Shown in pieces: positions 3,847 to 54,462 of a stretch of DNA of 64,000 nt. A program made the position numbers and the translations under genes. Positions within the stretch are counted from its first letter, which is position 1, and every line of letters starts with the position of its first letter. The stretch covers positions 21,678-85,677 of the forward strand of contig CACWUS010000001.1 of assembly GCA_902764145.1 (NCBI GenBank), read 5' to 3'. Below the pieces are notes generated by a model. It worked only from the letters and a program-made list of their open reading frames with translations, had not been told where the DNA came from and searched no databases. Source of the stretch: an uncultured Erysipelotrichaceae bacterium (lineage in GTDB: Bacteria > Bacillota_I > Bacilli_A > RF39 > UBA660).

Positions 3847-4924
3847 ATTCACTTTCACCTAAGGTAATTTTTAATGTTTTATGTTCGGTTCCTCTAATAA
3901 TTTCTATATCAACAGTATCACCTGAATTATATTTAGATAAATAGTATTTTAGTCTAGCTGAATTGCTAACACTATATTCACCTATTTTTACTATTACATC
4001 TCCCTTTACAATTCCAGCTTTACTAGCAGGTCCATTACTTGAAACAGAAAATACTACAACACCTGATATTATAGAGGAATCTATTTTAATACCTTCTCTT
4101 CTTAACATATATGAAGATGTTGCTATATCACCCATACTAATACCTAATAGTGGTCTATTTACTTTTTTACCACTAACTATTTGTTTAGCATAATTCATTG
4201 CTTCTTCAATTGGAATAGCAAATCCAATACCTTCTATTTCAGATTGAACAATCTTCATTGAATTTATACCTATAACTTCTCCACTAACATTACATAATGG
4301 CCCTCCACTATTTCCTGGATTTATAGCTGCATCAGTCTGCATAACATTCATAACCCAATCATTAGTTGTAGAATTGACAGATACCTCTACCATTCTATCT
4401 TTTCCACTTAATATTCCTCTTGTTACTGTACCTGCATAATCAGAACTCATTGGAGATCCAATTGTAAATACAGTGTCTCCTACTTTAGTATTCTCATTAC
4501 TTCCAATTTTGGCCACACTCTTAATATACTTTTTGTCTATTTTTAATATTGCTATATCTGCATACTCATCACTACCAATAACACTACAATCTATGGTTTC
4601 ACCACTCATTAGCATTACTTTAACTTCACTAGCTTTATCAATAACATGATGATTAGTCATAATAAATCCATTTTCATCATAAATAAATCCAGATCCAATA
4701 CCAGCTAATCTAGACTTTTGGTAGTTTTCAACAACCACAACAGAATCATATATATTATCTATTCCATCAGATATACCATTATCATTTACTGTTACGTCTT
4801 TTTGGACTTTAGTAATAATGTTTTTACTTTCAATATCATAATTAGAAATATAATAATACATACAATATGCACCTACACATATTCCAATTAATATTGTTAA
4901 AAAATATATTAATACTTTTTTCAT
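3845..4924 (-). CDS. htrA: Membrane-anchored HtrA/DegP-type serine protease with a PDZ domain
   Basis: Contains GNSGGPL, HHV and DIAIL catalytic-triad context plus a C-terminal PDZ. AGGAGG precedes the ATG at 4924; the track start at 5002 overlaps the upstream gene. Confidence 0.85.
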   Translation of the reverse strand: MKKVLIYFLTILIGICVGAYCMYYYISNYDIESKNIITKVQKDVTVNDNGISDGIDNIYDSVVVVENYQKSRLAGIGSGFIYDENGFIMTNHHVIDKASEVKVMLMSGETIDCSVIGSDEYADIAILKIDKKYIKSVAKIGSNENTKVGDTVFTIGSPMSSDYAGTVTRGILSGKDRMVEVSVNSTTNDWVMNVMQTDAAINPGNSGGPLCNVSGEVIGINSMKIVQSEIEGIGFAIPIEEAMNYAKQIVSGKKVNRPLLGISMGDIATSSYMLRREGIKIDSSIISGVVVFSVSSNGPASKAGIVKGDVIVKIGEYSVSNSARLKYYLSKYNSGDTVDIEIIRGTEHKTLKITLGESE

Positions 4925-4931
4925 AAGCCTC

Positions 4932-5864
4932 CTATGACAAGTAAGATATTTGTTTATAGTTATCTGGGAATCCCATTCTATATAATACTTTTTGAACATC
5001 AATAGATTTTAATTTAGATGATAACCAATCAATTTCATAATCTATTTCATTCATCATCATTTTAAAATCACTATAAGTTAACATATGCTTTAATATTATG
5101 ATTAATGCAAAAATATCATGCTTTCCATAAATATATTCATCATCAACTTTAGGAATATCTAATTCAGCATGGAATTTAGTATCACTAATAGCTTTTTGCG
5201 TTTCATGGTTATATAAAATATCTTCATGAGCACATAAATTCCTATAATTAGACAAAATAGCCAAATAATCTCCAAGTGACTCTGAATCAATATTAGTGTA
5301 ATAAGAAGCAATTTCTTCCTTATCTTCTTGTTTTAATATAGTAAATAATTCTCCCATTAATCCAAAACTTAATACTTTAACACCTACCCAAAGAGGTATA
5401 TATCCATAATTATTAATATAATGACTTGTAGCTGCATGTTGATATCCATTTATTCTAATTTGCCTTTTAAGTTTTCTAATTAAATCATTTATTTGTCTAC
5501 TTTTTTCCTTATTTCTATCAAAATTATCCACATTTAAATAATCTTTTTCTTTATAACCATACTTTTTACTTAAAACATAACTAAATATAGACTTATAGTT
5601 ATTTTCAACAATAAGTAAGTTTTTAAAAATAATATTTCTAAAATATCTATCAAATTTAAAAAGTGAATGTAATTCTTCGAAAGTTGAACCATCAATAAAT
5701 CTTTTAGAACCAGTCACTAAAAAAGGAGATCTATAGCCATTTAAAAAGAAATAGTTTTCTCTTAACAATACTTCTTTTGCACTATCATAATCTTCAATTG
5801 TAAGACCTTTGCTTTTTAAAATGTCCAATTGTTCTTCAATTGTTTTAAAAACCTTTGCTGCCAT
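4932..5864 (-). CDS. Abi_2 (AbiD/AbiF-like) abortive-infection family protein
   Basis: The N-terminus MAAKVFKTIEEQLDILKSKGLTIED..LLRENYFFLNGY is typical of the Abi_2 family. AGGAGAG RBS precedes the ATG at 5864. A possible promoter is TTTTAA-17-TATAAT at 5888-5916. Confidence 0.7.
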   Translation of the reverse strand: MAAKVFKTIEEQLDILKSKGLTIEDYDSAKEVLLRENYFFLNGYRSPFLVTGSKRFIDGSTFEELHSLFKFDRYFRNIIFKNLLIVENNYKSIFSYVLSKKYGYKEKDYLNVDNFDRNKEKSRQINDLIRKLKRQIRINGYQHAATSHYINNYGYIPLWVGVKVLSFGLMGELFTILKQEDKEEIASYYTNIDSESLGDYLAILSNYRNLCAHEDILYNHETQKAISDTKFHAELDIPKVDDEYIYGKHDIFALIIILKHMLTYSDFKMMMNEIDYEIDWLSSKLKSIDVQKVLYRMGFPDNYKQISYLS

Positions 5865-17704: not shown

Positions 17705-17990
17705 TTAATAAAATATGCTAATATTATTACTGTGTGGAGCATTATGCTAGTCAAGCATACCACCCGAAGATGGGGCTAAAAATCCATTAATTGTACAAAA
17801 AGATACTTTATATATTTTGCTTCTTTCGCCCAGACTGGGGTGAATATATAATTTTAGATTTAAGGATATTATATAATGGCATATATACAAATTCCTTTTA
17901 TCGCATCGTAGATTATGAACGTACATGACGTGAGTGAATTATTGGGATAAAAAATTGAAAAATAATTTGCAACAGCGTATAAAAGTGGAC
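17705..17990 (-). promoter_or_regulatory. Probable T-box leader of argS (extent uncertain)
   Basis: The minus strand reads TTCGGGTGGTATGC (17755-17765), matching the T-box core GGGTGGTA. Hairpins lie downstream and an aaRS gene follows. Stem I hallmark motifs were not recognised by eye. Confidence 0.45.
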
Positions 17991-18210
17991 TTTGCTTGTC
18001 TGGGAAAACCTCTAGCGTGTCTTTATTATAAAGATTGAAGTGCGGACTAAGTGGTGATCGAGTGATCACATAAGGTAACTAGTGATTTGTATTTTCAAAG
18101 AGAAATCGCCTACAGGTAACTAAGGGTAGATACAAGAGAAACTCAACTCGACCAAAGCCGTAAAATTAATTTATAATAATCCATACAATCTTTTTTTTTA
18201 GGAGAAAAAA

Positions 18211-20707: not shown

Positions 20708-20968
20708 ATGAAAGAAGACTATATTTTCAAAAATGAAAAAGAACTATATTTTACCATTGGAAAGAATATAAGATATTACAGAAAACTATATAGTTTAAAT
20801 AAAAAAGAACTCACACAAGAGTCCCTAGCTGAAATTGCAAATGTATCAACATCCTTAATAGGTAATTTAGAAAGCAAAAAAACATATCAAGGAATAAGTA
20901 TATATAATTTGTATAAAATTAGTAAAATATTAGAAATACCTATTGAATATTTTTTTGTTGATCGATAA
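20708..20968 (+). CDS. XRE-family HTH regulator (paralog A)
   Basis: LTQESLAEIANVSTSLIGNLES...LYKISKILEIPIEYFF. Confidence 0.7.
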   Translation: MKEDYIFKNEKELYFTIGKNIRYYRKLYSLNKKELTQESLAEIANVSTSLIGNLESKKTYQGISIYNLYKISKILEIPIEYFFVDR

Positions 20969-21215
20969 CAATTGATTCAAAAAATTTATCAATAGAAGTA
21001 TCTAATACTATTGAAATTTTATATAAAGTTAATAAAGCCATTCCTTCACTACCTTTAGTACTTTCAAATTTTCTAATATATTCTGGTGACTTACCAATAT
21101 CAAGTGCTAGTTGCTCTTGAGTTATACCATTTATTTTTCTATACTTGATTACGTTATAAGCAATAGTTTCAATTATATTTTCATTAAAATTGAACTCTCT
21201 TTTAAATCTTGTCAT
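20940..21215 (-). CDS. XRE-family HTH regulator (paralog B)
   Basis: ITQEQLALDIGKSPEYIRKFES...LYKISIVLDTSIDKFF. Its 3' end overlaps paralog A by 29 nt. Confidence 0.7.
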   Translation of the reverse strand: MTRFKREFNFNENIIETIAYNVIKYRKINGITQEQLALDIGKSPEYIRKFESTKGSEGMALLTLYKISIVLDTSIDKFFESIVIDQQKNIQ

Positions 21216-21317
21216 ACTACCACCTAAGAATAATTTTACATTGTTTTTAAATTAATTAATGTAATGTTATACTATACATTTTTAATTATTTATTTTATAA
21301 TTTAAATGGTGAAATAA

Positions 21318-21560
21318 ATGACTCAGAAGGAACTAAATATAATAATTGGTAAAAATATAAAAAAGTATAGAAAAATATGCAATAAAAAATTTACACAAGA
21401 ACAATTAGCAGAAGCAATCGATGTATCAGTTTCACTAATAAGCAATTTAGAAAGTGAAAAAATAAATATGGGCATAAGCATATCTAATCTTTATAAAATA
21501 TCAGTTGTATTAAACGTTCCTATTAATAAATTTTTTGAGGATAATAATTATGAAAAATAG
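21318..21560 (+). CDS. XRE-family HTH regulator (paralog C)
   Basis: FTQEQLAEAIDVSVSLISNLES...LYKISVVLNVPINKFF. Confidence 0.7.
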   Translation: MTQKELNIIIGKNIKKYRKICNKKFTQEQLAEAIDVSVSLISNLESEKINMGISISNLYKISVVLNVPINKFFEDNNYEK

Positions 21561-22068
21561 CTTAAATAACATATCTGATATTAATTCTTTTCTAAAAGAA
21601 AAAGACTTTAAAAAATTACTAAAAAAAATAGATTCAAAAAAGAAGATTAAAATAAATAATAAAATAATTCATAAAAAAAACTTATCGCACAAAGAACAAT
21701 TCCTATACAACCTAGATATGTATATAAACTTCATTAAATCAAAAGTATTTATTAATCAGTTCGAATTAAGATATATTATATATTTAACTTTATTTAATAG
21801 AAATAACAATATACTTTTTCATGATGTTTATTACTATGAAGACACAAATTATTATATAAATAAATTTATTAAAATGTTTATGTCAAATTATTTAAAAAAT
21901 TATAGATTTCTTTCAAAATATATTAATATTAAAAAAAGAAATTTTACTGAACTAATCGACATAATAAATAAAAATAAAAAAAGAACATATGTCTATTTTG
22001 AAGATATCAACATAAACAATATGAACTTTTATATTCCTTTAATATTAAATATTGAATCTAATTCATAA
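21550..22068 (+). CDS. Hypothetical K/N/Y-rich protein, translationally coupled to XRE paralog C
   Basis: GAGGA RBS. The ATG at 21550 overlaps the XRE stop by 11 nt. No recognisable domain. Confidence 0.5.
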   Translation: MKNSLNNISDINSFLKEKDFKKLLKKIDSKKKIKINNKIIHKKNLSHKEQFLYNLDMYINFIKSKVFINQFELRYIIYLTLFNRNNNILFHDVYYYEDTNYYINKFIKMFMSNYLKNYRFLSKYINIKKRNFTELIDIINKNKKRTYVYFEDININNMNFYIPLILNIESNS

Positions 22069-23134
22069 AAACATCATATATATTTTTATAACAGAAAGTT
22101 ACTCTATTCGTACCTTTCTTTTTTTCTTTAATTAAAAAACCTTGATCTACTAATTTATTTAATACCTTATTAACAGAATTAATATGTAAATTACACTCAT
22201 CAACTAAATCATGTGTAGTAAATACTATCTTTTTTAATATAACAGGATATACCTTAAATATAGTAGTACCCCCAATAGAATTCTTAAATAATTCATAATC
22301 ACTTTCATAAATTTTATTTAACTTTCTAATTCTTTTTATATTAATAGTGCATTGTTCAATAAAACATTGTAACAATAATTTGATAAATTTATTAACATCT
22401 TCCTCTATTTCACCACTTAAAGATGTAAAATATGTATTTTTTAAATTTTCCAAACTTTCAGATATAAATAACAAAGGAGGTTCCTTTTTATACATAGAAA
22501 ATTGAAGGGCAATTAATAATCTTCCTATTTTACCATTCCCAGAAACATAAGGATGAATTTTTTCAAATTGATAATGACTGATAATGGTAGAAATTAAATA
22601 TGGATCATCATTACTTTTAATATATTCAATTAACTCTTTCATTAAATCATTTACTTCTGTATACACAGGGGGAACAAATGAAACACTAGAGCCAGCTATT
22701 CCAGGTTTAAGTAAGAAATTTTGAGTCCTTCTAAATTTTCCACTTCCTTTAGTTTTACTATCCTTTTTGCAATTTAAAAATAACATCTTATTAATCTTGT
22801 TTAAAGTATCGATATTTATTTCACCTTTTGATGAATCAGAAGCACCTATTACTAATGATTGCTTAAGATTATTGAATTCTATTACTTCATTAGTTTTATT
22901 TAAATACTGTGAATGAAACATATATTCTTTGTCAATTTTACTTCCATCTAATTTAAATGAATAATAAGTATCCGAAATAAAAGCAGTTTCTAAAAAAGAT
23001 TTATAATCATACTTAAGATTTCTAAGATATCCTTTATATTCACCATATATTTCTTCTGCTTCACACAACAAATTATATAGTTCACCATTCTTATTATATT
23101 CTAATGGTAGTTTCTTAGCTTTATATGGTTCCAT
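22058..23134 (-). CDS. Fic-family protein with a C-terminal winged-helix domain and a degenerate Fic motif
   Basis: HPYVSGNGKIGR versus canonical HxFx(D/E)GNGRxxR. GGAGG RBS. Confidence 0.8.
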   Translation of the reverse strand: MEPYKAKKLPLEYNKNGELYNLLCEAEEIYGEYKGYLRNLKYDYKSFLETAFISDTYYSFKLDGSKIDKEYMFHSQYLNKTNEVIEFNNLKQSLVIGASDSSKGEINIDTLNKINKMLFLNCKKDSKTKGSGKFRRTQNFLLKPGIAGSSVSFVPPVYTEVNDLMKELIEYIKSNDDPYLISTIISHYQFEKIHPYVSGNGKIGRLLIALQFSMYKKEPPLLFISESLENLKNTYFTSLSGEIEEDVNKFIKLLLQCFIEQCTINIKRIRKLNKIYESDYELFKNSIGGTTIFKVYPVILKKIVFTTHDLVDECNLHINSVNKVLNKLVDQGFLIKEKKKGTNRVTFCYKNIYDVFMN

Positions 23135-23220
23135 ATTTTACCTCCATATATATAATATCACATTTATATAAAAAAATATACATAGTTTAGAATAAATATG
23201 TATATTTTATTTATTTGAAC

Positions 23221-23573
23221 AAAAAAAATAATTAAGTTCTGATAAAACTTAACTATCCTAGTTTAAAGAAATTAGATTACAATCGTTATAAATAATTTTT
23301 TTATTATAATATTCTAAATATTATCAGTATCTAGCGTAATCCCTTATCTTTTTGAGTTTCTTTCTCAATGATACATCATCGTTCAAGGTAGATAAGAATC
23401 TATTATTTCATATTTAAGAAATAAAATATTAACATATTTTAGCAAGTTAATACTAGAATATATTAAATAAATAGATTTTTTTCACCAAAATAATTAATAT
23501 AAATATTTTAATTTAATAAAAATTTTTTAAATTTAAACTAAACTATTATTATTTATACACTTATTATATTGAA
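23221..23573 (-). ncRNA. Candidate cis-regulatory long leader RNA, copy 1 (upstream of fic); unclassified
   Basis: Conserved core at 23311-23400. Terminator hairpin TTAAGTT-ttatcag-AACTTAA plus a T-run at 23221-23258. Paralogous to copy 2. Confidence 0.5.
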
Positions 23574-23580
23574 CAATATG

Positions 23581-23609
23581 ATTTTATCAATAATAAATAC
23601 AATTGTCAA
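23581..23609 (-). promoter_or_regulatory. Sigma-A type promoter of leader copy 1
   Basis: TTGACA-17 nt-TAAAAT on the minus strand. Confidence 0.55.
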
Positions 23610-23633
23610 TAAGGTTAAATAAGATACTGTAAA

Positions 23634-23987
23634 CTAAGTTGGATTAGGAAAATCCAAAAGACCATATCCTTCACCATTAATCCAATAAATCTTTTTATTT
23701 TTAATTTTAAAATTATAAACAATTCTATATTTAACATCTTGATCATTTTTATATATAAATTCTAAATCTATGGAACCATTCTTATTTGGTATAAATTTCC
23801 AATGATTTTCGCTTTGTTCAGAAAGAACAAGATTATTGTTACTAGCTCTATATTCCCAAACATAATTTTCATCATTAAAATTATAATCTATTGAAATTGA
23901 ATTTTCATACACTCCTAAATATGGATTATAAAATAGTATTATAAGTAACAAAACAGCTGTAACTCCAAAAATTATATAATATCTCAT
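23634..23987 (-). CDS. Small secreted or membrane-anchored protein, unknown function
   Basis: 117 aa, N-terminal hydrophobic segment, AAGGAGA RBS. Confidence 0.6.
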   Translation of the reverse strand: MRYYIIFGVTAVLLLIILFYNPYLGVYENSISIDYNFNDENYVWEYRASNNNLVLSEQSENHWKFIPNKNGSIDLEFIYKNDQDVKYRIVYNFKIKNKKIYWINGEGYGLLDFPNPT

Positions 23988-24004
23988 AAATTCTCCTTAT
24001 ACAC

Positions 24005-24677
24005 AAAAAGCAATCAGTCCTGATAAAACTTGATTGCCTTGAGTTTCCGAAAAAAAGATTATAATCATTTATATTAAAGTAGATACTTTAATATAAATAC
24101 ATTCTAAATATTATCAGTATTTAGCATAATCCCTTATCATTTTGAGTTTTACTTTCTCAACGATATATCATTTGTCCTTGGTAGATAAGATATCTATTTC
24201 TTAAATTAATAAGAATATTTATTTAATTATTGAAATATAAATATATAATTAAATATCAATAAATTAATACTAATAAATAATATATATATTTATTAGATAT
24301 AAATAATTAAGATAACTACTAATATATATAAATAATAATTTAATATTATTTGTATATAACAAAATGTAATCAAGTTAATTATTTATATGAGAATAAATAA
24401 TTAAAAATAATAATTAAATATATAAGTATAATTAATAAATTAATATTAAATATAAATATATATAATTACTACTATAACTATTTAATTTAAATAATAATAT
24501 TGAATATAAATTAATAATTAATAAATTAATATTAATTGTTAAAATATAAAAATCAATAATATTACTATAAAATAATTAAATAAAATTATAGATTTTTTCA
24601 CCAAAATAATTAATTGATGATTTATATATATAAATAATTAAATTTATAATATAAATATCCTTTAATTATCTATTGGA
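24005..24677 (-). ncRNA. Candidate cis-regulatory long leader RNA, copy 2 (upstream of the 117-aa gene); includes a ~380-nt AT-only insertion
   Basis: Conserved core at 24101-24195. Terminator hairpin CAATCA..ttatcag..TGATTG plus TTTTT at 24005-24040, ending 17 nt before the ATG. Confidence 0.5.
24205..24586. repeat. Extreme AT-only low-complexity tract
   Basis: About 380 nt with only a few percent G+C by eye. Recurring ATTAATAAATTAATATTA-type words. No ORF. Confidence 0.6.
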
Positions 24678-24684
24678 CAATTTT

Positions 24685-24713
24685 ATTTTATCAGTCTTTT
24701 AATAATGTGTCAA
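24685..24713 (-). promoter_or_regulatory. Sigma-A type promoter of leader copy 2
   Basis: TTGACA-17 nt-TAAAAT on the minus strand; homologous in layout to 23581-23609. Confidence 0.55.
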
Positions 24714-24722
24714 TACTTTTTT

Positions 24723-24753
24723 AAAAAAAAGAATAATTTTTTTAAAATTATTC
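24723..24753 (-). terminator. Intrinsic terminator after the hydrogenase-like gene
   Basis: 10-bp stem GAATAATTTT/AAAATTATTC followed by eight T on the minus strand. Includes the stop codon. Confidence 0.6.
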
Positions 24754-26244
24754 TTTTCCTAGTAGCACTTTTTTATTTTCAAAATTACTTTGAAAGATTT
24801 TTTTTGAATTATTAGATCCTGGATTTTCTAAATATTTTTTATAAATTTCTTTTAATTCTTTATTATTATATACAAATCTATTTTTTGAATTTTTATCAAG
24901 TAAGTATATTTTCTCACTCAAATCCTTAATATTTTCTATATTATTACAATTTTCATATATAGCTTGTCCACCACCATTAATACAACCTCCCTTACAAAAG
25001 GATACTTCAATCAAATGGTATTGTTTATACAAACTATTTTCTAGTAATTTTTCTAAGCTTTTCATATCTGTTACTACAGCTACCTTTAATTTCAAACTAT
25101 TAGTATTAATTGTTGCTTCTCTTATATCTTCATTTCCTCTTAATTCATATATATCAATCTCATCTTTTGCTAAATCTTTTTTATTAATAACCCTGTAAAC
25201 TGTTCTTATAATAGATTCTGTTTGACCACCTGAAACACTAGATAGATAACCACTGCCGCTTATTTCTCCAACTATGGAATCATAATTACTACTATCTATT
25301 GTCTTTAAATCTATATCTTCATCTTTAATTAACAATAACAATTCATTTGTTGTTATAAAGTAATCTGTATTTACATTTTTTTCTTTTCCATATAATTTAT
25401 AAGCTGAACAATTAGAAATACTAACAGTTACAATTCTTTTTCTATCAAAACCTTTTTTCTCACAAAAATAATTTTTTATAATTTCATCTTCCATTTCAAT
25501 AGGTGTTTTACAATAAGATAAATTATTTAATAGTTCAGGATGATATATTTCAGCATATTTTATCCATGATGGACATGAAGAAGTAAATAAAGGTAATTTC
25601 TCTTTTTTACTTATTCTTTCAATTAATTCAAATGATTCCTCAAATGATAATAAGTCAGATCCAAATGATGAACTAAAAATATAATCAAATCCTATTTTTC
25701 TTAAAATTCCTATTGTCTTTTTTTCGGCCACACTTATATCATCTATATTATATATTTTGCCTATTGTTAAAAATACACTTGGAGATAATATTGCAATCAC
25801 TATTTTTTCATTAGCATCCATTATCTGTTTTACTTTTCTATATTCAGACTTTATTGATAAAGCCTTTGTAGGACAACTTAAAACACATTGTCCACAACCT
25901 GTACAAATAGGATTATTACATATATTTAAATCATATGTTAAGTTAGCTATATTTTCACAAACTTTTTTACATTGACCACAATTAATACATTTATCATTAT
26001 TTTTTTCTATTGAATAGTTATCATCACTCAATAGAATACATTTATCATTTTCATTTTTATTAATAATTCTTGATTTTTTTTCTTCTTTTGCTTCTTCTAA
26101 CATTGATTCAATAATAGCGTCTATTTCATTATTAGCTATATCTTCAACCACATGAAAAGAATCTGATCCACACTTTGGACATTTTGAAATATTTTCTTCA
26201 AGTTCTATTTTAAATCTACAACTATCACATAAGTATTCTTTCAT
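24748..26244 (-). CDS. [FeFe]-hydrogenase-like protein with non-canonical H-cluster motifs (sensory-type candidate)
   Basis: N-terminal Zn-ribbon CDSC..CPKC. Two 4Fe-4S motifs, CINCGQCKKVC and CTGCGQCVLSC. L1 TSSCPSW, L2 SNCSAYK, L3 EVSFCKGGCINGGGQ. C-terminal small-subunit-like domain. Confidence 0.8.
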   Translation of the reverse strand: MKEYLCDSCRFKIELEENISKCPKCGSDSFHVVEDIANNEIDAIIESMLEEAKEEKKSRIINKNENDKCILLSDDNYSIEKNNDKCINCGQCKKVCENIANLTYDLNICNNPICTGCGQCVLSCPTKALSIKSEYRKVKQIMDANEKIVIAILSPSVFLTIGKIYNIDDISVAEKKTIGILRKIGFDYIFSSSFGSDLLSFEESFELIERISKKEKLPLFTSSCPSWIKYAEIYHPELLNNLSYCKTPIEMEDEIIKNYFCEKKGFDRKRIVTVSISNCSAYKLYGKEKNVNTDYFITTNELLLLIKDEDIDLKTIDSSNYDSIVGEISGSGYLSSVSGGQTESIIRTVYRVINKKDLAKDEIDIYELRGNEDIREATINTNSLKLKVAVVTDMKSLEKLLENSLYKQYHLIEVSFCKGGCINGGGQAIYENCNNIENIKDLSEKIYLLDKNSKNRFVYNNKELKEIYKKYLENPGSNNSKKIFQSNFENKKVLLGKE

Positions 26245-54366: not shown

Positions 54367-54372
54367 CTATTT

Positions 54373-54444
54373 GTGCAACAGATATAAATATGAACTAGGT
54401 CAGGATTGGAAAATAGCAGCCTTAAGTATTTTATCTGTGTGCAC
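54373..54444 (+). ncRNA. ffs: Small (4.5S-like) signal recognition particle RNA
   Basis: AGGTCAGGATTGGAAAATAGCAGCC matches the domain IV consensus AGGUCAGG..GGAA..AGCAGCC. The closing helix pairs GTGCAACAGAT with ATCTGTGTGCAC (one bulged G), followed by TTTTATTTT. Conserved position next to tadA-dnaX. Confidence 0.8.
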
Positions 54445-54462
54445 TTTTATTTTGAGGTAAAA

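Follow-up and report, generated by a model that had tools for sequence, protein, structure and literature searches.

Several described systems resemble, each in part, the element considered here. In the corrinoid riboswitch, loops L5 and L13 kiss, and their docking stabilizes the hairpin of the expression platform (PMC10327014). RCd22, an abiF-motif RNA, acts on AbiF in cis as well as in trans (bioRxiv 10.1101/2025.04.15.648962), and SoFic is a toxic, AMPylating abortive-infection effector that comes with a small antitoxin (PMC12249575). Here we describe two tandem RNA units on the minus strand (23221-24713) of a 64,000-nt stretch of DNA from an uncultured Erysipelotrichaceae bacterium (contig CACWUS010000001.1 of assembly GCA_902764145.1, positions 21,678 to 85,677; hereafter the window, with a G+C content of 24.2%). 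In both units all four parts, a promoter, a shared sequence block, a core and a terminator hairpin, were found at the positions at which they had first been noticed. The upstream unit is called copy 2 and the downstream unit copy 1, and the coordinates of the units and of the two genes that follow them refer to the minus strand.

The PGK RNA family and its 3' domain

Covariance models of Rfam were run against the whole 64-kb window and gave four matches above threshold, two of which were the cores of the units. The core of copy 2 (24196-24104) matched RF03040, the PGK RNA, with 81.0 bits (E = 1e-10) and that of copy 1 (23403-23314) with 75.3 bits (E = 1.2e-9), the gathering score of the family being 50.8 bits and the E-values referring to a 2-kb region. 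Both cores (about 92 nt) span positions 1-92 of the 92-position model, and they are 86-87% identical to each other. Between 22900 and 24900, no Rfam match other than PGK was found, even at E ≤ 1. The initial annotation had seen two co-oriented units with a common core fold, could place them in no riboswitch class that it knew, and had proposed an Rfam scan in which a significant known family would speak against novelty. The common fold was borne out, as both cores match one and the same covariance model; the novelty was not, because a full-length match above the cutoff means that the units are not a new class. The units are ordinary members of an Rfam family already on record, of the type Cis-reg, and their kind was already known. 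The extended architecture described below, together with the complementarity to the terminator loop that runs through the family, lies outside the Rfam model and is new to our knowledge. As a whole, the earlier interpretation was thus partly supported; it holds in that the RNA is real, conserved and structured, and that promoter, long leader and intrinsic terminator all belong to the unit.

The PGK RNA is an orphan motif. Searches for PGK motif, PGK RNA and RF03040 returned nothing relevant, and no follow-up, in the searchable literature. The family presumably comes from the 2017 screen that reported 224 candidate structured RNAs, whose main text does not carry the name. PGK RNA is not mentioned in the main text of that screen (PMC5737381). 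A tblastn search with one query sequence found a pgk gene neither in the window nor among 108 related loci.

Relatives were collected by two pattern scans, in neither of which the loops were specified. The first covered one genome per species and yielded 40 loci; the second, looser and directed at metagenomes, yielded 68 loci, about 10 of which were chance matches in coding DNA. After the removal of duplicates, 97 distinct complete units remained, and 42 distinct full-length 3' parts were aligned (alignment A1). All true members were found in uncultured low-GC metagenome-assembled genomes (MAGs) labelled Bacilli, Mollicutes, Mycoplasmatota, Tenericutes, Erysipelotrichaceae, or Clostridium sp. 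CAG:524 and CAG:1000, from sources that include human gut, rumen and rabbit (the Lapin-labelled MAGs). The scan of viral contigs for the motif gave no match. Homologs outside the locus, on which the first description had made its case depend, are at hand among these units, and they preserve the helices and, in 96 of the 97, the loop complementarity. It had also been cautioned that a recent segmental duplication might account for much of the identity between the two copies. Both paralog types, however, are kept across many MAGs. Those of the copy 1 type share the box AAACUAGGA and an AU-only terminator, UUAAGUU/AACUUAA, in many MAGs. The duplication is therefore old rather than recent, and both copies have been maintained.

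The helices noted at first, namely P1, the first hairpin (P1a), the second hairpin (P2) and the further hairpin (P3), were all present. In copy 2, P1 is formed by CUUAUC (24189-24184) and GAUAAG (24138-24133) and is followed inward by P1a (24171-24160) and P2 (24159-24143); P3 lies at 24124-24104 with the loop L3, CUGAUAA, at 24117-24111. The corresponding positions in copy 1 are 23396-23391 and 23348-23343 for P1, 23380-23367 for P1a, 23367-23353 for P2 and 23334-23314 for P3, with L3, again CUGAUAA, at 23327-23321. A further helix, P5, which is absent from the Rfam model, joins (A/G)AUUAUG after P1 to CAUAAU(U/C) after a variable hairpin, P4, and closes a three-way junction that holds P3. 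In copy 2 the junction extends over 24132-24056, where P5 (GGAUUAU, 24132-24126, with AUAAUCU, 24062-24056) encloses P3 and P4 (24099-24066). The 3' domain of copy 1 (23342-23221) is built in the same order of P5 (GGAUUAC, 23342-23336, with GUAAUCU, 23280-23274), P4 (23309-23286), a conserved box and the terminator. The box, of the form AAACUNGRA, leads into the terminator and reads GAAACUCAAGG in copy 2 (24047-24037) and UAAACUAGGA in copy 1 (23265-23256).

The structure of A1, with P1, P1a, P2, P5, P3, P4 and the terminator, was derived by eye. Over its 42 sequences, 96.1% of the cells are paired and 32 pairs show double changes; this exceeds all of 500 column shuffles, and sliding the structure by 1-3 columns reduces pairing to 37-45%. 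RNAalifold independently recovered P2, P3, P4, P5 and the terminator, and single-sequence minimum free energy (MFE) folds of both window copies contain P3, P4, P5 and the terminator. Double changes occur in six of the eight pairs of P5 and in eight of the 12 pairs of P4, and P1 and P3 covary as well. The variants of P5 include AUAAUG/CAUUAU, AUUAAG/CUUAAU, AUCAUA/UAUGAU and UCACA/UGUGA, besides AUUAC/GUAAU in window copy 1. The P1a hairpin is missing from the Rfam consensus yet covaries in the relatives, and P2, which is invariant in the main copies, shows compensatory changes (AGAG/CUCU and UUAAG/CUUAA) in the second copies.

The hairpins with U-runs fold as first predicted in the MFE structures of both copies. 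In the putative intrinsic terminator of copy 2 (24037-24010), a 1-nt bulge separates the outer stem from the inner stem GUU/GAC, which carries the loop UUAUCAG (24026-24020), and U5 (24009-24005) follows; that of copy 1 (23256-23228) is AU-only, with the loop UUAUCAG at 23245-23239 and U8 at 23228-23221. A simple terminator scan detected neither of them, because it demands at least three G-C pairs. The two stems had been said to differ completely, which is correct for the outer stem; an inner AAGUU..(A/G)ACU is common to both, as is the loop. In A1, all 10 stem pairs of the terminator show compensatory changes. Across the 97 distinct units, the arms occur in 60 distinct versions around the loop.

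L3 is exactly complementary to the terminator loop in both window copies, as noted at first, and the match extends to the relatives. With anchors that ignore the loops, L3 was CUGAUAA in 117 of 117 true members, and the terminator loop was UUAUCAG in 96 of the 97 distinct units. By a strict test, 93 units have a UUAUCAG hairpin and then a U-run 73-137 nt downstream, and three further units have the UUAUCAG loop with a weaker closing pair. The exception is L074 (metagenome contig Ga0172377_10489229, minus strand, near position 127), in which the terminator loop is UGAUCAG and L3 is unchanged, leaving one mismatch; the contig is 1 kb long and of low coverage, and a sequencing error is possible. 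All seven loop-loop pairs are invariant in the 42 sequences of A1, and since both loops are invariant, covariation offers no proof of their pairing. By our own arithmetic, the chance of perfect 7-nt complementarity is about 6e-5 per loop pair at uniform composition, and higher if the sequence is AT-rich. Without function, a terminator loop would not be expected to keep both its length and its sequence on a drifting stem.

The sequence of L3 is also that of the anticodon loop, likewise of 7 nt, in E. coli tRNA-Ile(GAU), which may be a coincidence. In the terminator loop UUAUCAG, for its part, the Ile codon AUC stands before a purine. No tRNA-Ile gene was found in the window or in 60 loci, the sole tRNA gene found being a tRNA-Trp gene in locus L026. 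A T-box leader had no Rfam match, and A1 contains no UGGN bulge or T-box sequence; the identity of L3 is the one feature that relates to tRNA.

The 5' end, the shared block and the modular region

Both promoters, TTGACA-17-TAAAAT, were found where they had been reported, each as an 11/12 match, and no other promoter match in the region is as good. The promoter of copy 2 (24713-24685) consists of a -35 element TTGACA (24713-24708), a 17-nt spacer and a TG-extended -10 element TAAAAT (24690-24685); in copy 1 (23609-23581) the -35 element TTGACA lies at 23604-23609 and the -10 element TAAAAT, likewise TG-extended, at 23581-23586. Transcription is predicted to start at about G24678 in copy 2 and G23574 in copy 1, giving predicted transcripts of 674 and 354 nt, respectively. 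A near-consensus promoter lies 150-735 nt upstream of the core in most units with enough upstream sequence (64 distinct ones), and a conserved UUGUCCAAUAGAUAA directly follows the -10 element, at the predicted start. The promoter type of copy 2 recurs before 60 or more distinct units of the relatives. Across units, the distance from the predicted start to the U-run is 301-979 nt, with a median of 459 nt.

The GUCC at the predicted 5' end of the transcript is complementary to GGAC within a conserved, supposedly unpaired stretch of the core, CUACUAAGGACAAAUG. The resulting long-range helix, P-LR, would pair UUGUCC (24680-24675, with the 5'-terminal GUCC) with GGACAA (24177-24172) in copy 2. In copy 1, UUGUUC (23576-23571) faces GAACGA (23384-23379), a compensatory variant of GUCC/GGAC. 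As P-LR crosses P1, it would form a pseudoknot. Changes on both sides are seen in independent lineages (GUAC/GUAC, GUUC/GAAC as in window copy 1, AGACC/GGUCU and GCUUAG/CUAAGC), and several U.G wobbles accompany these four or five independent compensatory variants. Cognate duplexes were calculated to be more stable than cross-pairings (for copy 1, -9.8 kcal/mol against -6.7 and -4.3). On a MAFFT-registered alignment, 91% of the cells are paired, against 32-49% when the strands are slid. For four of five measures, the number of shuffles that came up to the observed value was 4 of 500 or lower. Taken together, these comparisons lend P-LR moderate support.

An alternative pairing of the same region was not adopted. 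The 5' element UAGAUAA and UUAUCUA of the P1 5' arm could form 7 bp that are contiguous with P-LR and compete with P1; this pairing is present in most units, and in lineages with P1 = CUAAUC/GAUUAG the 5' UAGAUAA element has diverged from complementarity. A conformational switch between the two is possible. Three elements of copy 2 contain GAUAA (5' UAGAUAA at 24666-24672, the P1 3' arm at 24133-24139 and L3 at 24111-24117), and only two contain UUAUC (the P1 5' arm at 24183-24189 and the terminator loop at 24020-24026).

The shared block was confirmed as a run of 22 nt that is 100% identical between the copies (23477-23498 and 24593-24614). In copy 2 it reads AUUAAUUAUUUUGGUGAAAAAAUCUAU (24614-24588), and it is conserved in most species as UAGUGAAAAAAUUCUAU, a form also given as AUUAUnUAGUGAAAAAAUUCUAU. 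Its 3' end pairs with AUAGAA immediately 5' of P1, which gives a helix that we call PB. In copy 2 the 5' strand of PB is AUCUAU (24593-24588) and the 3' strand AUAGAU (24197-24192). Copy 1 has the block at 23498-23470, and the 5' strand AAUCUAUU (23477-23470) pairs with AAUAGAUU (23404-23397). Besides AUCUAU/AUAGAU, which both window copies share, the relatives have compensatory variants such as GUUCUA/UAGAAC, UUCUAA/UUAGAA, UUUCUA/UAGAAA, UUCC/GGAA and AUCCUAU/AUAGGAU. When PB was tested by permuting the partners, the duplex energies of the cognate pairs beat 10,000 of 10,000 permutations.

In the relatives, PB encloses a hairpin, P0, and one or more covarying AU-rich hairpin modules. P0 of copy 2 (UUCUUA-UUAAUU-UAAGAA, 24215-24198) directly precedes the 3' strand of PB, the two together covering 24215-24192, and it becomes GCUUA/UAAGC in loci L015 and L020. 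The variable AU-rich region of copy 2 (24587-24216) contains hairpin modules of the UUAAUAUUAAUUUAUUA type and the direct repeats D2, D3, D5 and D6. The module loop motif recurs at 24530-24519, 24444-24433 and 24268-24257, so that three of the four exact matches to it in the window fall inside this region. The presence of three or four modules explains the long leader of copy 2. These comparisons show that the fold extends far beyond the 92-nt Rfam motif, its core, to a predicted 300-1000 nt.

Gene context and possible roles of the units

The locus is syntenic among the relatives. A response regulator, a histidine kinase and an [FeFe] hydrogenase are followed by an RNA unit and a small exported protein, in many genomes by one or two further RNA units, then by a Fic/winged-helix protein, a 177-aa protein, three XRE regulators and TypA, and in several loci by an OLE RNA. 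Among the 93 distinct units, 62 stand before the small-protein gene, 21 before the fic region and seven in other contexts (a 118-aa protein that neighbors efp; one of 440 aa; a 166-aa protein and then a 513-aa one), and three are at contig ends. In every case with context, the downstream gene is co-oriented with the unit.

The small exported protein downstream of copy 2 (23987-23634; 117 aa, with an N-terminal anchor) has a ribosome-binding site (RBS), AAGGAG, at 23998-23993. The ATG follows the U-run at a distance of 17 nt that includes the RBS, so that the gene depends on read-through, as had been proposed. In 31 of the 62 small-protein units, the ATG comes within 37 nt of the end of the terminator loop, too close for a promoter to fit in. 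Sub-threshold similarity to Inhibitor_I42 (chagasin) was found in 16 of 27 homologs (best E = 1.1e-5), and a profile search against PDB gave nothing significant for the 117-aa protein. The family is clade-specific and has a conserved C-terminal GLLDYPNPY. In a divergent group, locus L016 has a 151-aa open reading frame (ORF) between the RNA terminator and the usual 117-aa gene (4865-5321, + strand), with its own TTGACA-17-GATAAT promoter and an N-terminus that, by our impression only, resembles a transposase of the IS605 OrfB/TnpB type.

The fic gene (23134-22058; 358 aa) encodes a SoFic-like Fic domain and a winged helix. The protein matches the SoFic model of PADLOC over its full length (E = 1.5e-57) and is below the NCBIfam equivalog cutoff. 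The canonical Fic motif is replaced by the clade-conserved variant HPYVSGNGKIGR, with Ser for Asp/Glu and Lys for Arg. It also has a variant, SFKLDG, of an inhibitory-helix-like element, and it may not be an AMPylase.

Each terminator had been placed just upstream of a gene. This is true of copy 2. In copy 1, an 86-nt stretch intervenes that is found before fic in every species and holds a control module of fic itself (23207-23141), consisting of a hairpin, AUAUACAUA..UAUGUAUAU, with U7 (23207-23170), an extended -10-like element, TGATATTAT (23160-23152), and an RBS, GGAGG (23145-23141). The palindromic hairpin AUAUACAUAU..AUAUGUAUAU with its U-run is found in 61 of 64 distinct fic upstream regions, and the extended -10-like element, TGTGnTAnnAT, in 63 of them, whether fic is preceded by the small-protein gene (43 cases) or by an RNA unit (21 cases). 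Since this conserved hairpin and the promoter-like element belong to fic, with or without a PGK unit, copy 1 is not the fic leader that it had been taken for. It is instead an ORF-less unit inserted ahead of the fic control region. Locus L092 contains three units, the middle one of which is directly followed by the promoter of the next.

The fic palindrome is conserved at the sequence level, which suggests a DNA operator as much as a terminator; candidate binders are perhaps the neighboring XRE regulators or the winged helix of the Fic protein itself. In the window, three small XRE-family helix-turn-helix genes in alternating orientation and the gene of the 177-aa protein, which has no family match, lie at 20708-21560 and 21535-22068, between fic and typA. 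These four genes are syntenic in most relatives, and their region matches 'control protein' or capH-type models of PADLOC.

The reading that we favor, and that we regard as about equally likely to be right or wrong, is that each unit is a gene complete in itself, encoding a large structured RNA whose kissing-locked terminator determines where the RNA ends and how much transcription leaks into the downstream gene. A strong sigma-70-type promoter would start the transcript at GUCC or GUUC, which would pair into the core as P-LR, followed by the AU-rich modular region closed by PB, the Rfam core, and P5 enclosing P3 and P4. The 7-nt terminator loop UUAUCAG would then kiss L3, making the terminator hairpin part of the fold. 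Such a kissing pair could fix and protect a discrete 3' end, and it could set the amount of transcription that leaks past the weak, AU-rich terminator. In copy 2 this leak would be the only evident route to the exported I42-like protein, and the RNA would double as an attenuating 5' leader; copy 1 has no ORF of its own, the separate control module of fic following it. The sequences themselves establish the family membership, the helices, the fixed and complementary loops and the gene order, whereas the start site, the formation of the kissing pair within or between molecules, its effect on termination and any role in trans are inferred. We place a discrete RNA first because of the strong promoter, the core-paired 5' end, the modular region, the terminator tied to L3, the unrelated downstream genes and the ORF-less paralogs, namely the middle unit of L092 and the 21 units upstream of fic's own module.

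Several observations weigh against this reading. The two loops are invariant, so that the kissing pair is without covariation, and the sole variant, in L074, is uncompensated. The relatives come from one source clade, and their covariation counts are accordingly not independent events; P-LR in particular rests on few lineages. The transcription start, the 3' end and the stability of the RNA are all predicted, and what looks like a promoter behind some of the terminators is a consensus match and no more. In about five independent contexts, a co-oriented gene always starts within about 110 nt downstream of the unit, and this co-orientation, together with the Cis-reg type in Rfam, fits a dedicated cis-regulator as well or better.

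In the reading first proposed, the RNA is a ligand- or factor-responsive attenuator, in which the core would bind an effector that controls the docking of L3 on the terminator loop and, by analogy with L5-L13 of the corrinoid riboswitch, termination ahead of the I42-like and fic genes. The constant orientation and proximity to a downstream gene, and the half of the small-protein genes without room for another promoter, agree with it. So do the Rfam type, the conserved terminator loop complementary to L3, the invariant single-stranded junction nucleotides (GAGAAAG, AAACUCAAAA, AAAUGAUU and AAACUNGRA) and the precedent of an aptamer loop that kisses an expression-platform loop (PMC10327014). On the other side, the downstream genes (I42-like, the fic region, 118-aa/efp, 440-aa, and 166-aa with 513-aa) share no pathway, some units are ORF-less with promoters of their own, and a variable expansion of 200-700 nt between the 5' end and the core is atypical for aptamers. 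Moreover, no conserved, mutually exclusive antiterminator was found among the candidate competitors compared across the relatives. Because no conserved antiterminator was found and no pathway is common to the downstream genes, and because of the ORF-less units, we consider a riboswitch possible but not favored; it is the main rival of our reading, with a minor share of the likelihood.

Four candidate antiterminator pairings were rejected. L3 with the P3 3' arm can pair with the terminator 5' arm and loop (13 of 14 pairs in copy 1), and this pairing is unconserved beyond the seven loop pairs. The invariant AAUGAUU fits the terminator 5' arm AAUCA in the majority only, the arm varying without compensation. 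For the P2 5' arm UUGAG and the AAACUCGAA box, the third position of the box varies (C, A or G) and P2 is invariant. Finally, GUGAAAAAA of the block and the U-rich linker form A/U pairs only, with no covariation.

A role of the RNA as antitoxin or regulator of the SoFic-like protein seems quite unlikely to us. In such an arrangement, modelled on type III toxin-antitoxin systems, an abundant RNA ending at the terminator of its unit would bind or repress the Fic/winged-helix protein, in trans as well as in cis. The idea is suggested by the full-length match to SoFic, which is toxic and needs an antitoxin (PMC12249575), and by a layout of promoter, structured RNA, terminator and toxin gene that resembles ToxIN as well as RCd22-AbiF, whose RNA also goes back to a motif of the 2017 screen (bioRxiv 10.1101/2025.04.15.648962). 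In the main clade, no more than one gene ever separates the RNA from fic. However, 7 of the 93 distinct units have no fic gene within the loci compared, the non-canonical motif HPYVSGNGKIGR makes toxicity doubtful, and the unit has no tandem-repeat RNA. The locus is a syntenic region of the core genome and not a mobile island, and no viral contigs carry the motif.

It is highly unlikely, in our estimate, that the pairing of L3 with the terminator loop joins separate molecules into dimers or head-to-tail multimers. Two invariant, perfectly complementary 7-nt loops on one large multi-helix RNA would be suited to this, and conserved loops of OLE, ROOL and GOLLD, often invariant, form intermolecular kissing bridges by cryo-EM (bioRxiv 10.1101/2024.12.08.627333). 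The sequence data, however, fit intra- and intermolecular pairing alike, and the constant, short linker between P5 and the terminator, with its conserved box, is compatible with intramolecular docking. The absence of any RNA function, the units being a recent duplication, an AT-rich chance pattern in a window of 24% G+C with many AT-rich repeats, or a DNA operator made of the inverted repeat CTGATAA/TTATCAG, is already contradicted by the Rfam E-values of 1e-10 and 1.2e-9, by the compensatory changes and G.U wobbles that each helix shows across 97 distinct units, by the conservation of both paralog types across species, and by half-sites that are 73-137 bp apart and lie each exactly in a hairpin loop.

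Comparison with known RNA systems

The core of the units does not differ from PGK RNA as modelled in Rfam; P1, P2, P3, L3 with CUGAUAA, and GAGAAAG..AAACUC are the same. P1a, the CUAAGGACAA pairing with the 5' end, PB and the modular region are outside the Rfam model or unannotated in it, as are P4/P5, the box AAACUNGRA and the terminator, whose loop is complementary to L3. For an orphan motif, the larger fold, the pairing of the 5' end with the core and the invariant terminator loop are concrete targets for mutation. If the kissing pair does control termination, it would represent a regulatory design that is not documented for terminator loops, and the SoFic-like neighbor hints at RNA control of a defense- or toxin-type gene in uncultured gut bacteria. 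A bolder view, which we think unlikely, is that this is an ornate, modular noncoding RNA of 300-1000 nt in reduced-genome gut Bacilli rather than a small cis-motif, with its 5' end and terminator locked onto the core, loops that serve as a new kind of expression platform or as an RNA-only multimer bridge, and a function together with the SoFic-like and I42-like proteins.

With the corrinoid riboswitch, the units share a loop of the core or sensing domain that is complementary to the loop of a 3' hairpin, and in both, docking rather than strand exchange could pass on the state of the fold. The partner in the corrinoid riboswitch is a separate P13 hairpin, whereas in PGK RNA it is the terminator hairpin's own loop, and the pairing would comprise seven contiguous Watson-Crick pairs against 3-4 in L5-L13. 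Cobalamin aptamer models showed no sequence or Rfam similarity in 22900-24900. RCd22 and ToxIN resemble the units in that a structured RNA with its own promoter and terminator lies directly upstream of a defense-type toxin gene. In contrast to type III toxin-antitoxin systems, the PGK unit has no tandem repeats apart from the AU-rich hairpin modules, its neighbor is a Fic domain with a variant motif and not an RNase, and the RNA is also found away from fic.

The window itself contains an OLE RNA (RF01071, 218.6 bits) at 17718-18200 (+ strand), about 5 kb from the PGK units and beyond typA. OLE RNA was also found in loci L013 (7447-7927, again beyond typA), L051 (2740-3220), L077 (3505-3985) and L078 (5146-5272); these carriers are host-associated, very AT-rich Bacilli with reduced genomes and not classical extremophiles. 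A bacterial small signal recognition particle RNA (RF00169, 54.4 bits) lies at 54370-54450 (+ strand).

In general build, the PGK RNA recalls OLE, ROOL and GOLLD: its predicted length runs to several hundred nucleotides, it combines many covarying helices with peripheral hairpins that vary, and its invariant loops are capable of kissing. It differs from them in being smaller, in being confined to one clade, and in always lying directly upstream of a co-oriented gene.

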